Of a stretch of DNA of 64,000 bases, positions 36,784-47,396 are shown in pieces (the first letter of the stretch is position 1; each line of letters opens with the position of its first letter). Position numbers and translations under genes: made by a program. This DNA comes from Bacteroidales bacterium (GTDB lineage Bacteria; Bacteroidota; Bacteroidia; Bacteroidales; UBA3663), in NCBI GenBank assembly GCA_045629225.1, contig JAZQQU010000023.1, positions 14,257-78,256 on the forward strand. The letters are read 5' to 3'. The notes beneath the pieces were generated by a model, which saw only the letters and a list, made by a program, of their open reading frames with translations, ran no database searches and was not told the origin of the DNA.

Positions 36784-39417
36784 TTAGAATCCTACAGCCA
36801 CAGCGATCTGAATGCCATGCTTGTTGACTCCAGGATGATCAAGATAATTAAGACGGCGGATATACTCCACTCTCAGTACCTTGAAGATATTGTCGATGCC
36901 AAATACAGCTTCCATATAGGGCGTATTGCTCAGACGATAAACAGTGCCATTGGTTGGGAAGGCAAAAAGGTCAGGATTGCGAGGCGAACCATCAGCAAGA
37001 AGTATGTCTGGATCATTCTGCTGACTTAGCTTGCCATATACTCCTCTGAAACATAGAATTTCTCGTAGTCGAAGTCTGCGGATGAATGGCAGATTGTTGA
37101 AGATGAGTCCATTCATCTTGTAGGTGATGTCCCACGAGGCATACTGGTCATAGATAAACTCCATGGACTGCAGCTGTGAGAATGAACCATGCTGAATAGT
37201 GAAGCCAGTGTTAGCACTAGGCATGGAAAGCAGCGAATAAGGTGCTTGCGTCCAAACTTTACCCAAATCGAGCGTAACATCGGCATAGCCAAGCACATTA
37301 AGCCAGAAACGTTTTAAGAACTTGAAGTCGGTGCGTTGGTAGTTGAAGTCTGATCCAAGGAAATCCTTTGACGCAAACTGATGTGTGAGCTCAAATACCG
37401 GGTGAAGGTCATCGACACGGATACGTGTGGTTCGCATCTGGACGAAGGTCTCCTTGGGTGCCCATCGTAAGGCCAGAGTTCCCATGGCCAGATTGTAATG
37501 CGACTGCTGCATTCCGGTACCGATCTGGCGGAATTCTCCAAGTCGGGAACTATATTCACTCATCAGTTCTCCTTTCAACTTGAGACTGAAATGGTTCCAT
37601 AGTTCGAGGGTATAAAGCAGAGAATTGGAACGCACATAGGTATACTTTGGATCAGCGTCACGACGCAATGACGTGACGAAATTATCACGATTTGTGCTCA
37701 GTTTCAGTCCAAGTTCTTTCGAATCGTATGTACTCTCTAACTTCAGCGAATGGATAGGGAATTCATTGGCATACATCTTTTTGGGTCGAAAAGAGTATTC
37801 CAATACTGCATCGTACTTCCATTTATGATCTTCCACACCATAGGCTGCATAGCCACTAGCAAATAAATGTGGGTTGACATTGGCTGTGGTGATGCCTCCC
37901 ACTCGAAGACGGAGGTGTTCGAGTTTGTTCCACGAAGCCAAGGCATTGATAGGGCCGAACATGACATGTGACTGCTCGTCAATCGGATTATCCAGAGGCA
38001 GGAACCCCTTAAAGAACCAACCAAGAACGCGTTCGGCATACTTATAAAAAGGCACCTTACGCATACGGGTCATCATGGCCTGCACGGAATGCTCAGGATC
38101 ATAGTCGTCAGTGAGTCGATGTTGCTGCCAAAAAGCTAAGTCAGACGTCTGCTTGGCCAGATCGGGGCTGGTGAACTTGGGTGGACGACGGAAGATCTGC
38201 TCTTCAAGTTCTGGTTTCTCGCTATCAAAACCTGAATATCGAACAAGACGATGAGCATAGAAACCAAGCGATGATGCCGTGACATTAATCTCTGAGTCGA
38301 AACGTTTGCGGATTACAACTCGTGTGCTGTCAGGGAGTCGTCCATTATCGAAAGTTACACGCAGATTGCGTACAAAATTGAGATTGATGTCAGGTGGCAG
38401 ATTGAGTTCTGCTCGACGCACAAAGTAGGTACTATCTGTCGAGATATATAGATGCCCTACAAAACCGAATGACTGAGGCATAAGCGGAGCAAAGCCCAGA
38501 TCGACATATCGTTGGCCATCATCGAGCTTAAGTGTATCGAGGATGTAGTATTTATAGAAAGTAATGCCAAAGTCAGAGATAGGTGACACAAACTTCTTGC
38601 GATAAAGGAAGATGTTGTCATCAAGCAAATCCATCTCTGGGAAGACTTCGGTTTTGAGCACCGCAATCATTTCGTCGGGCAACATGTCATCAAGGCCAGC
38701 ATGTTGTTCGGCTTCGGTAACAACTCGACGTGAGTTGTTATGACGACGATAGTAGTGGGTCTCGATCCTTTCGTCAGTGGTGACTGGAAGGATAGGACCA
38801 CCTGAGATCAGTGCTGTATCTACAAACTCCTCAATGAAGGGAAATCTCTTCTGCCACTGTTTTACATAGCCTTCATCAAAATTATTGAATGAATAGGTCA
38901 TATTATCATAACGCTCCTGTCGGAAATAGTCATGCAGATCAGGATGATGATCCATCTTGTGTGCTATGACATTACGCATCAGCTCAACAGCAGGGTTTTC
39001 TTTACGACGATATCGCTCACGCTTCGGTTTTACAACCACCTCTGACAACTGGATGTCATTAGGCACCATGCGGATATTAAGCTGCAGTTTGCGGGTTCCT
39101 ACCTTTATCGAGTAGTCATTGTAGCCCAAGTAAGTGATGGTTACTGTGCTTCCTGGTTTTGCCAACATCGAGAAGTTGCCATTGGCGTCAGTGATGGTGC
39201 CATTGGTTGTGCCCTGCTCTACGATATTGGCAAAGTCAATGGGATCACCTGTAATGCTATCGACCACTTGACCTTGCAGCGTAACACGATTGACAATGCG
39301 TGATGAATTGTTCTTGTTACCTCCATCTCTATTACTTTGTGCATTAACAGAGAGTAAAGGTAGCATCATTGCTATCAACCAGAGGGTGAAGACTATTATT
39401 ATTTTATCAATTTTCAT
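36784..39417 (-). CDS. Outer-membrane protein with carboxypeptidase-like regulatory domain + DUF5686
   Basis: Signal peptide from ATG 39417; GQVVDSITGDPI..GTITDANGNF domain; ENPAVELMR; barrel ending in F; TATATTTGCA promoter at 39480-39489. Confidence 0.85.
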   Translation of the reverse strand: MKIDKIIIVFTLWLIAMMLPLLSVNAQSNRDGGNKNNSSRIVNRVTLQGQVVDSITGDPIDFANIVEQGTTNGTITDANGNFSMLAKPGSTVTITYLGYNDYSIKVGTRKLQLNIRMVPNDIQLSEVVVKPKRERYRRKENPAVELMRNVIAHKMDHHPDLHDYFRQERYDNMTYSFNNFDEGYVKQWQKRFPFIEEFVDTALISGGPILPVTTDERIETHYYRRHNNSRRVVTEAEQHAGLDDMLPDEMIAVLKTEVFPEMDLLDDNIFLYRKKFVSPISDFGITFYKYYILDTLKLDDGQRYVDLGFAPLMPQSFGFVGHLYISTDSTYFVRRAELNLPPDINLNFVRNLRVTFDNGRLPDSTRVVIRKRFDSEINVTASSLGFYAHRLVRYSGFDSEKPELEEQIFRRPPKFTSPDLAKQTSDLAFWQQHRLTDDYDPEHSVQAMMTRMRKVPFYKYAERVLGWFFKGFLPLDNPIDEQSHVMFGPINALASWNKLEHLRLRVGGITTANVNPHLFASGYAAYGVEDHKWKYDAVLEYSFRPKKMYANEFPIHSLKLESTYDSKELGLKLSTNRDNFVTSLRRDADPKYTYVRSNSLLYTLELWNHFSLKLKGELMSEYSSRLGEFRQIGTGMQQSHYNLAMGTLALRWAPKETFVQMRTTRIRVDDLHPVFELTHQFASKDFLGSDFNYQRTDFKFLKRFWLNVLGYADVTLDLGKVWTQAPYSLLSMPSANTGFTIQHGSFSQLQSMEFIYDQYASWDITYKMNGLIFNNLPFIRRLRLREILCFRGVYGKLSQQNDPDILLADGSPRNPDLFAFPTNGTVYRLSNTPYMEAVFGIDNIFKVLRVEYIRRLNYLDHPGVNKHGIQIAVAVGF

Positions 39418-39596
39418 GATTACTAATCTTTGTAGCACCTGTTTCAAAGAAATTGAAATTAGCAGAATGCAGAAAACTCTGCAAATATACGCATTTTTAA
39501 TCAATGATGATGCATGTCATCAGGCTTAATTACATTTTTTTCACTCAAAGACTCCTTTTTGTATCACAATTGTAATGACGAGTTATTGAAATTGGC

Positions 39597-39745
39597 AAAA
39601 ATTAAGGTTAAGTCATCTGACCTAACCTATACATAATTACATAAAGTAAATGTCCCTAATCACGTTTTTCTGGTATTAGATTTAAGGTTAATAATAAAAA
39701 TAGTGTTTATTTTAAGGTATCGTGTTATGGTTATGTTATTTAAGG
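39597..39745 (-). ncRNA. Candidate ~150-nt small RNA antisense to the 47.3-kb sRNA (putative sponge)
   Basis: TTTG(39779-82)-N20-TATCTTTG(39751-58) promoter; 3' hairpin AGGUUAGGUC-AGAU-GACUUAACCU + UAAUUUUU; no ORF of note. Confidence 0.5.
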
Positions 39746-39928
39746 TGGTGCAAAGATAAGGCCTTTTTCTGACCTGACCAAATTATTTCTTATTAAATTT
39801 TTTGTGCAATCTATTGTATAGATGATAATTTAACATTCATTTACACAAATTCTAGCATTTTTGATGCAAAAATGAGAATTTTGTTGCACAATTGTACCAT
39901 ATTTTGCAAAGTAGAGATTACTGAGGGA

Positions 39929-46824: not shown

Positions 46825-47280
46825 ATGAACGAAGTCCGTATAGATAAATGGCTTTGGGCTGTGCGTATCTTCAAGACACGCACCATTGCCTCAGATGCCT
46901 GTAAGCTGGGCCGTGTCACCATCGGCGGTCAGCGTATCAAACCCTCAAAGATGGTAAAGGTTGGCGAAGTGATCGATGTGAAAAAGCCACCTATCACCTA
47001 TTCGTTTAAGGTTTTGGCACTCTCTGAGAACCGCATGGGAGCTAAGCTGGTGCCTGGTTTTATGGAGAACGTCACTAAGCAGGAGCAGCTCGATCTGCTG
47101 GAGATGAACCGTATTTCAGGTTTCATCGATCGTGCAAAAGGCATGGGACGACCCACCAAGAAAGACCGTCGCGATATGGACGATTTCTCAACGCCCGAAT
47201 ATGTTGATGAATTTGATTTCAGCCTCGAGGATTTGGACGAATTCGATGCAGAAGACTGGAATGAAATCATGAACAAATAA
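46825..47280 (+). CDS. hslR: Ribosome-associated heat shock protein Hsp15 (S4 domain)
   Basis: RIDKWLWAVRIFKTR, GRPTKKDRR. Confidence 0.9.
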   Translation: MNEVRIDKWLWAVRIFKTRTIASDACKLGRVTIGGQRIKPSKMVKVGEVIDVKKPPITYSFKVLALSENRMGAKLVPGFMENVTKQEQLDLLEMNRISGFIDRAKGMGRPTKKDRRDMDDFSTPEYVDEFDFSLEDLDEFDAEDWNEIMNK

Positions 47281-47342
47281 AAAAGAAGGTCGTCTCACGA
47301 CGACCATCTTCACTAACCTTAAATCTTATACCATGAAAAACA
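47279..47342 (-). ncRNA. Candidate ~64-nt small RNA (resembles Bacteroides paralogous FopS-like sRNAs, from memory)
   Basis: TTTG(47376-79)-N20-TATCTTTG(47348-55); body GUUUUUCAUGGUAUAAGAUUUAAGGUUAG; terminator GGUCGUC-GUGA-GACGACC + U-tract. Confidence 0.7.
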
Positions 47343-47396
47343 CGATGCAAAGATAGGGCCTTTTTCCTATATTTGCAAATTTATACATATAATTTA

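Follow-up and report, generated by a model that had tools for sequence, protein, structure and literature searches.

A conserved family of predicted small RNAs complementary to the FopS seed in one Bacteroidales genus, with features of an RNA sponge

FopS is at present the best-understood regulator in the post-transcriptional control of glycan uptake by gut Bacteroides, and sponge RNAs such as SroC, the chbBC decoy and RosA are known from Proteobacteria and Firmicutes. To our knowledge, RbpB, a protein, is the sole antagonist of FopS, and we know of no Hfq-based system described for Bacteroidales-type hosts like that of the RNA considered here. FopS is a family of paralogous small RNAs (sRNAs) in Bacteroides that represses translation of SusC-like proteins through a 5' seed; in B. 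thetaiotaomicron its targets are the translation-initiation regions (TIRs) of SusC-like transporters, RbpB antagonises it, and RbpB CLIP peaks fall on the 5' parts of FopS (Ruttiger et al., 2025, PMC11697453). Sponge RNAs, or anti-sRNAs, include AgvB (anti-GcvB) and 3'ETS-leuZ (PMC12205990). The words "sponge" and "decoy" are absent from the FopS paper (PMC11697453) and from a 2026 review of sRNAs in gut commensals (PMC13750123), and the literature searched, partly as titles and abstracts, describes no RNA sponge for FopS or in Bacteroidota. Here, we describe a predicted small RNA gene in a 64,000-nucleotide stretch of Bacteroidales DNA (the window) whose transcript would be complementary to the FopS seed, together with the RNA family to which it belongs (features in Table 1).

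The sRNA gene near 47.3 kb is a true FopS gene, scoring 70 bits against RF04319 (gathering score 56) in an alignment that spans the full length of the model (1-71), and it is one of four FopS genes above the Rfam cut-off in the source genome. At 39.6 kb, the plus strand reads GTTTTTC-TGGTATTAGATTTAAGGTTA (39664-39690), and nt 3-30 of the 47.3-kb FopS read GTTTTTCATGGTATAAGATTTAAGGTTA on the minus strand; the match of 26 out of 28 positions reported by the first-pass annotation was reproduced, with one gap and one mismatch. A 20-nt core pattern, with up to 3 mismatches allowed, occurs at two places only in the window, the 39.6-kb and 47.3-kb loci, and 0 occurrences are expected from 100 shuffles. 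The plus strand at 39.6 kb (39662-39716) scores 33.2 bits against RF04319, below the gathering score of 56, and 25.3 bits against GibS, with 20 hairpin positions of RF04319 replaced by 4 nt; it has neither promoter nor terminator, and the minus strand of the region gives no RF04319 match. The candidate RNA is thus not a FopS paralogue, in agreement with the earlier reading.

Table 1. Features of the candidate RNA locus, its proposed partner gene and related loci (window positions unless a locus is named)
Feature	Coordinates	Strand	Basis or detail
-33 box TTTG (in AATTTGG)	39779..39782	-	20 nt 5' of -7 box
-7 box TATCTTTG, canonical Bacteroidota element	39751..39758	-	pattern TAnnTTTG
Predicted ~150-nt small RNA	39597..39746	-	promoter, terminator, family model R1 73.8 bits
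5' module (RNA nt 1-40)	39707..39746	-	CA-rich, predicted unpaired; site 1 39740-46, site 2 39712-18
Site 3, predicted high-affinity complement of ~FopS nt 2-31	39662..39692	-	UUAACCUUAAAUCUAAUACC-A-GAAAAACGU
Terminator hairpin (predicted)	39605..39628	-	10 bp, one G-U, 4 G-C, 4-nt loop
FopS-like sequence mirroring site 3, without being a FopS gene	39662..39716	+	RF04319 33.2 bits
CarboxypepD_reg + DUF5686 outer-membrane-type protein, 877 aa (ATG 39417)	36784..39417	-	Pfam
FopS sRNA gene (proposed partner)	47276..47343	-	RF04319; -7 box 47348-47355
Fold-back orthologues	L015:1408-1588; equivalents L016, L017, L018; plus L082, L045	-	21-bp hairpin

Several observations concern FopS genes themselves. 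In the stretch 47281-47343, the terminator hairpin of the 47.3-kb gene (GGTCGTC..GACGACC) lies directly 3' of the stop codon of a convergent S4-domain gene (46825-47280, plus strand) and could serve both genes, and its promoter stands back-to-back with the TATATTTG box (47368-75, plus strand) of a gene of the poly(A) polymerase/CCA-adding type. Elsewhere in the source genome (G000), a FopS-like gene on the minus strand (L005; C79:5566-5645) scores a sub-threshold 35.9 bits and has a 5' seed seemingly in tandem duplicate, GTTTTTCATGGTATT and then GTGTTTTTCATAAGGTAAG... This gene could represent either a variant of FopS or a copy in decay.

Between 38,884 and 42,324, only two canonical -7 boxes (TAnnTTTG) were found, at 39751-58 and 39482-89; both lie on the minus strand and none on the plus strand, which bears out the claim that the sole nearby promoter would fire on the minus strand. 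This -33/-7 promoter type has been described in the FopS paper (PMC11697453) and in a Segatella copri preprint, and a TTTG(G)-N~20-TAnnTTTG arrangement recurs in members of the RNA family. The 5' end of the RNA (39746) was set by analogy with FopS at the fifth nucleotide past the -7 box, where it coincides with the A of the first ACCUUAA, and the 3' end was set at the U-tract. As had been proposed, a hairpin of 10 pairs including a G-U (39628-39605), with ACCUUAA site 4 in its 3' arm, is directly followed by a U-tract at 39597-39601 (UAAUUUUU) and would end a unit of ~150 nt. The terminator of the window copy is modest (-13 kcal/mol, U5) and species-specific, and blastn against 40 relatives found no homologue of the 3' part of the RNA, the best matches ending at query position 133.

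The promoter segments 39749-69 and 47346-66 are indeed identical at 20 of 21 positions, but the co-regulation of an sRNA/anti-sRNA pair that had been drawn from this identity was rejected, as the 21-mer is close to a generic strong-promoter consensus. The source genome has 4 sites with at most 1 mismatch to it, 19 with at most 3 and 55 with at most 4, which mostly precede unrelated sequences. TAnnTTTGC occurs at 1150 sites there, with TTTG at N19-21 in 346; AAAA stands 4-6 nt 5' of the -7 box in 145 of these 346 promoters, and an A-run plus TATCTTTGCA is a general promoter consensus of this genome.

The further ACCUUAA sites that had been described are present, with ACCTTAA on the minus strand at 39740-46, 39712-18, 39682-88 and 39602-08. 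Both strands of the 64-kb window together hold 11 such heptamers (5.1 ± 2.5 expected), four of them clustered in 145 nt of the candidate RNA strand. All features that recur in the family are found on one strand of the window copy: the -7 box, the 5' module and its pair of ACCUUAA motifs, a third stretch that complements FopS, and the terminator. The stretch from 39746 to 39597 on the minus strand is accordingly predicted, from these signals, to be a stand-alone small RNA gene of ~150 nt.

Pairing was modelled with RNAduplex, in which 34 nt from the 5' end of each of the four FopS paralogues were set against candidate RNAs; the resulting duplex energies leave out proteins such as RbpB. Against the four paralogues, the window RNA gives duplexes of -33.9 to -36.5 kcal/mol (z about -7.6 to -8.2), and a second copy of the RNA in the source genome, on contig C50, gives -31.3 to -35.4 kcal/mol. 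Shuffle means were about -15 ± 2.6 kcal/mol, which places the two RNAs at z -6.1 to -8.2, and 0 of 300 shuffles reached any pair. A third, divergent copy on contig C11 gives -22 to -30 kcal/mol. Full-length cofolding gains -27.4 to -32.2 kcal/mol over the monomers with both terminators intact, compared with -10.5 to -11.2 ± 2.5-3.0 kcal/mol for shuffles (100 each; best shuffle -23.7). A genome-wide scan covered 6585 segments pre-filtered by a 7-mer shared with the seed complement (mean -13.8, sd 3.2 kcal/mol). The four FopS antisense strands ranked first (-41.5 to -48.3 kcal/mol), followed by the window RNA in fifth place (-36.5) and the C50 RNA (-35.4), after which there was a gap to -28.6 kcal/mol. 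Among the start-codon regions of 3209 ORFs of at least 150 aa, the best duplex with FopS reached -24.6 kcal/mol, so the extended seed complementarity of the two RNAs (-31 to -36.5 kcal/mol) exceeds both chance and mRNA start regions. No clear FopS mRNA target was found among these 3209 start regions of the source genome. A 1250-aa ORF on contig C18, considered as a decoy-like FopS target candidate, was rejected as an Omp28/Big_5 protein that is not SusC-like.

The complementary site also appears to be accessible. RNAalifold places 0 pairs in the 95-nt core of the family, the first ~90 nt of the window RNA are predicted to be single-stranded, and centroid folding of the window and C50 RNAs leaves the binding site free of pairs. 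Site 3 fits the consensus of the FopS family, beyond the neighbouring 47.3-kb copy alone. The complementarity to the FopS seed that had first been noticed is therefore matched in these models by an accessible, near-perfect complement that 0 of 300 shuffles equal and that supplies the top non-self sites genome-wide, and we think it probable that the RNA pairs with FopS in the cell. FopS seeds are almost invariant within the genus, and variants with 3 U and 4 U coexist in most genomes; sites with 3 or 4 A are not matched genome by genome to FopS with 3 or 4 U, a comparison made uninformative by that coexistence.

The other heptamers contribute less. Site 1 is moderate (-13.4 to -17.6 kcal/mol; reached by 2-3 of 500 shuffles), site 2 is weak (-11.5 kcal/mol; 36 of 500), and site 4, which lies inside the terminator stem, does no better than chance (99 of 500). 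The picture of several ACCUUAA binding sites thus holds strongly for site 3 and moderately for site 1, and sites 2 and 4 drop out as strong binders. The 5' module as a whole (nt 1-50) gives -17.6 kcal/mol with FopS, which 2 of 500 shuffles reach, and reads as a degenerate FopS complement. The first-pass annotation had further described a decoy deprived of its start codon. In site 3 of the window copy, a single nucleotide does stand in place of the AU(G) of the FopS complement, and the AUG that would face the CAU of FopS is absent in 28 of the 33 family members with a strong site; it is kept in the other five, to which the description does not extend. These five have ORFs of only 1-14 codons that are not conserved, and a small-ORF reading was rejected on this ground.

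The source genome holds three copies of the RNA family: those of the window and contig C50 and the more divergent one on C11. The C50 paralogue shares the promoter, the 5' module and site 3, again with one nucleotide for the AU of the FopS complement, and has a strong G+C hairpin and U terminator on the anti-FopS strand; orthologues likewise combine promoter, 5' module and site 3 with strong G+C hairpin/U terminators on that strand. It is this shared orientation of promoter and terminator that assigns the family to the anti-FopS strand, and the same signals, kept on one strand in paralogues and orthologues, speak for the minus-strand transcription unit first proposed for the window.

Searches with blastn using the unit matched 24 of 24 same-genus genomes in a sample of 41. 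From the 23 blastn-found sequences (alignment A1), a covariance model, R1, was built over 95 positions; it is sequence-only because RNAalifold gives no pairs in the core. The window copy is the best R1 match in the source genome (73.8 bits). Conservation in Bacteroidales, to which the earlier reading had looked, takes the following form: R1 matches 36 of 39 genomes of the genus, at 1-5 copies each, where the 39 are all genomes considered for the genus and the genus is the whole of its taxonomic family, and it matches 1 of 149 genomes outside the genus in an order-wide sample searched with stricter filters. The three genomes of the genus without a match are 63, 75 and 83% complete. A search of 397 genomes from other genera recovered no site with the one-nucleotide linker. 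Within the genomes searched, the members of the family come from a single uncultured gut/rumen genus of Bacteroidales and from one genome of another genus.

An exact 21-mer from the 5' module was found in 72 stretches of a species-representative collection. By their titles, nearly all are metagenome-assembled genomes (MAGs) labelled Bacteroidales or Prevotellaceae, several of them named for ruminant gut compartments, and Candidatus Liminaster caballi is also present. The 21-mer has 0 matches in viral contigs, and a phage origin of the family was rejected accordingly. Pooling and deduplication left 73 unique loci with the 5' module. A -7 box stands at a fixed offset in 71 of them; the remaining two loci are on Flavobacteriales and Pirellulales contigs and are apparently chance matches. 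By a heuristic search, a hairpin and U-tract follow 105-216 nt past the predicted start in 68 of the 71. Invariance of the module in the 72 loci picked by 21-mer is by construction, and related genomes are not independent of one another. In A1, the 5' module is the most conserved part and nearly invariant, and site 3 is less so; of the 73 unique loci, 33 have a near-perfect site 3 (-30 kcal/mol or lower), and in the other 40 it is degenerate, with gradual decay. Since site 3 is less conserved than the 5' module, the core function of the family may lie elsewhere. At one locus on a relative's contig (L079:1078-1173, plus strand), a partial 5' module is directly followed by a full one, which suggests a local duplication of the element. 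Two other loci, L125 and L126, were left out of the analysis.

The family and FopS co-occur in every family-bearing genome tested, with FopS found in 38 of 39 by exact pattern, in G011 by covariance model, and in G124, which belongs to another genus, too. Searches of Rfam 15 gave no family match on the minus strand of the window region (E <= 10) and none above threshold at 13 relatives' loci (E <= 1), and the sub-threshold matches there were to FopS, GibS and BTnc231 only, all in FopS-like segments. In the syntenic orthologues, promoter and core are 87-88% identical at the nucleotide level, and the flanks are no longer alignable. A minus-strand sRNA gene of a new family is very probably real and conserved. 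Three RNA-sequencing runs were found in which 4-6% of sampled words are present in each; their 12 assembled contig pieces, partial and from relatives, cover 39657-39783. This includes the untranscribed promoter, so the contigs speak neither for nor against a transcript.

From the sequence features, their conservation and orientation, and the predicted thermodynamics, we infer the following course of events. The RNA would be made from its -33/-7 promoter and would end at the intrinsic terminator; site 3 would then pair with almost the whole single-stranded 5' seed of FopS (about nt 2-31), with the 5' module as a weaker site. The long duplex would compete with the mRNA targets of FopS, and captured FopS would be titrated away, possibly marked for degradation, so that FopS repression would be relieved by an RNA sponge or anti-sRNA. 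That the candidate is an anti-sRNA which titrates FopS, with titration as its main role, has in our judgement an even chance of being right. The earlier interpretation thus keeps its strand, its decoy logic and its predicted pairing, and loses co-regulation, a universal loss of the AUG and the several strong sites.

Other readings were weighed against FopS titration. An ordinary trans-acting sRNA, with the 5' module as a seed for mRNAs of its own and the FopS complement as a relic of an inverted duplication or a site of cross-talk, would have the usual sRNA build of an unstructured 5' seed followed by a terminator, and would account for a module that is nearly invariant in A1 when site 3 decays in many members. 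The module is also complementary over 17-19 nt to two start-codon regions (-28.7 and -26.6 kcal/mol). We nevertheless consider this reading unlikely: the module pairs best with simple (GAGGTTWT)n arrays and not with mRNAs, it can itself be read as a FopS complement in degenerate form (-17.6 kcal/mol; 2 of 500 shuffles), and in members of two spacer types, 33 of 73 unique loci in all, site 3 has stayed near-perfect, which disfavours a neutral relic. If the RNA also acts in trans, the two start regions (G000:C97:11640-11719, plus strand, and G000:C16:35360-35439, minus strand; ATGAAAAAG...) are possible mRNA targets by complementarity. A protein could instead be the ligand: as CsrB/RsmZ or CrcZ do, the single-stranded ACCUUAA(A) repeats would soak up a protein that binds RNA, perhaps an RRM protein resembling RbpB. 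A heptamer repeated three to four times within 145 nt, with two of its copies conserved in A1 in a predicted unpaired region, and the multicopy family would suit such a role, which is very unlikely all the same, as the 27-31-nt complementarity of site 3 would be needless for it and there is no known protein partner or motif. Moreover, the RbpB CLIP peaks lie on the 5' parts of FopS, the complementary sequence (PMC11697453). Almost no credence is due to a functionless, decayed plus-strand FopS pseudogene beside an unrelated minus-strand promoter; the matches of that strand to RF04319 (33.2 bits) and GibS (25.3 bits), which would favour it, are below the gathering scores of 56 and 115, the plus strand lacks a -7 box and a terminator, and the opposite-strand arrangement of promoter and terminator is kept across 36 of 39 genomes as well as in paralogues.

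The RNA could also be a cis-acting 5' leader or attenuator of the co-oriented DUF5686 gene downstream, in which FopS binding would set read-through or stability and early termination would yield the short RNA as a by-product. This subtype of the RNA gene is syntenic with the DUF5686 gene in 9 other species (64-78% amino acid identity of the protein), and at least 5 of the 9 have no more than about 40 nt between the terminator and the ATG and, by inspection, no canonical -7 box in that gap; the ATG is there too close for a separate promoter, which suggests a leader rather than a free sRNA in these species. Outer-membrane transporters are, moreover, regulated by FopS (PMC11697453). For the window copy, however, the first-pass annotation was right that the downstream gene has a promoter of its own, a -7 box at 39482-39489, and a TAnnTTTG promoter past the terminator is likewise found at L087 and L068. 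The DUF5686 TIR pairs with FopS at -12.3 kcal/mol, the genome average, and inspection alone revealed no alternative antiterminator fold. Of the 33 loci with a strong site, 17 are followed by a co-oriented ORF and 16 by a convergent one, and for this reason the family as a whole is taken to be free-standing. As an account of the RNA, a leader is therefore distinctly improbable.

The (GAGGTTWT)n octamer arrays are the best non-self complements of the 5' module, at -25 to -32 kcal/mol with G-U pairs. They often lie near contig ends (G000:C87:18181-18308, C98:1819-1970, C68:4620-4771, C29:3886-3965 and others), and similar AATTGTTA-type arrays were seen just 3' of several family members in relatives (L022-L024, L027).

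In six of the syntenic orthologues, a 21-bp intramolecular hairpin (MFE -43.4 kcal/mol, z -6.1) ties up half of site 3. A FopS-5'-like segment, GGUUUUUCCGGUAUU, stands right after site 3 in these orthologues and folds back on it; L015, L016, L017 and L018 among them are the same loci as L060, L058, L085 and L064. In these folding models, the segment would act as a built-in FopS mimic that masks the FopS site and that was lost in the window copy. Such masking in some species hints at a regulated, switchable sponge. Taken at its fullest, FopS titration would mean that a multicopy anti-sRNA family has evolved opposite multicopy FopS, with a ~30-nt decoy, usually without the AUG, and a weaker second site, and that it buffers free FopS and hence the translation of outer-membrane transporters in rumen/hindgut Bacteroidales, one subtype serving also as a DUF5686 leader with its site masked in some species. 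We offer this fuller scenario tentatively, as one that is somewhat less likely than not.

If FopS titration is correct, the FopS/RbpB circuit of glycan uptake would gain a further layer in the form of an RNA antagonist, which would be the first RNA sponge or anti-sRNA described in Bacteroidota and a rare instance of sponge paralogues set opposite sRNA paralogues. Because the FopS seed is identical in B. thetaiotaomicron, a direct test by heterologous expression is possible there, and the candidate RNA could serve as a tool for the knock-down of all 14 FopS copies at once. Whatever its function, the RNA gives the annotation of rumen/hindgut Bacteroidales genomes a new and well-conserved sRNA family (model R1).

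Compared with described RNAs, the candidate shares with FopS (RF04319) ~27 nt as reverse complement, the promoter type, the multicopy habit and the genomes in which it occurs, but it would be made from the opposite strand, is ~150 rather than ~70 nt long and has a different 5' module; from its sequence it is a proposed partner of FopS and not a member of that family. GibS (RF04182; 25.3 bits on the window plus strand, gathering score 115) and BTnc231 (RF04180; 30.6 bits in the 3' part of the divergent relative L031, gathering score 80.4, and no match in the window) differ in architecture, and their weak matches are due to the FopS-like segments present there. Identity with SrcF of Segatella copri was ruled out by its description as an RNA of 272 nt with a structured 5' end (S. 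copri preprint). Protein-sponge RNAs of the CsrB/RsmZ/CrcZ kind have many motif copies and a cognate protein, whereas the candidate has 3-4 heptamers. With RbpB of B. thetaiotaomicron it would share the proposed net effect, that FopS is kept from silencing its targets; unlike RbpB, it is an RNA that would recognise FopS by base pairing, and it belongs to one genus only, while FopS is widespread. Its likeness to the sponges and anti-sRNAs lies in an exposed segment that mimics or exceeds a target site and is predicted to pair with an sRNA seed, and with AgvB it has in common a promoter and terminator of its own, both predicted. It differs from the sponges of Proteobacteria and Firmicutes in its phylum, in setting a multicopy sponge family against a multicopy sRNA family, in a predicted pairing that spans almost the whole single-stranded part of the sRNA (about 30 nt), and in being known from sequence alone. 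By analogy of function, its closest kinds would be anti-sRNAs with their own promoter, such as AgvB, and sponges such as 3'ETS-leuZ.
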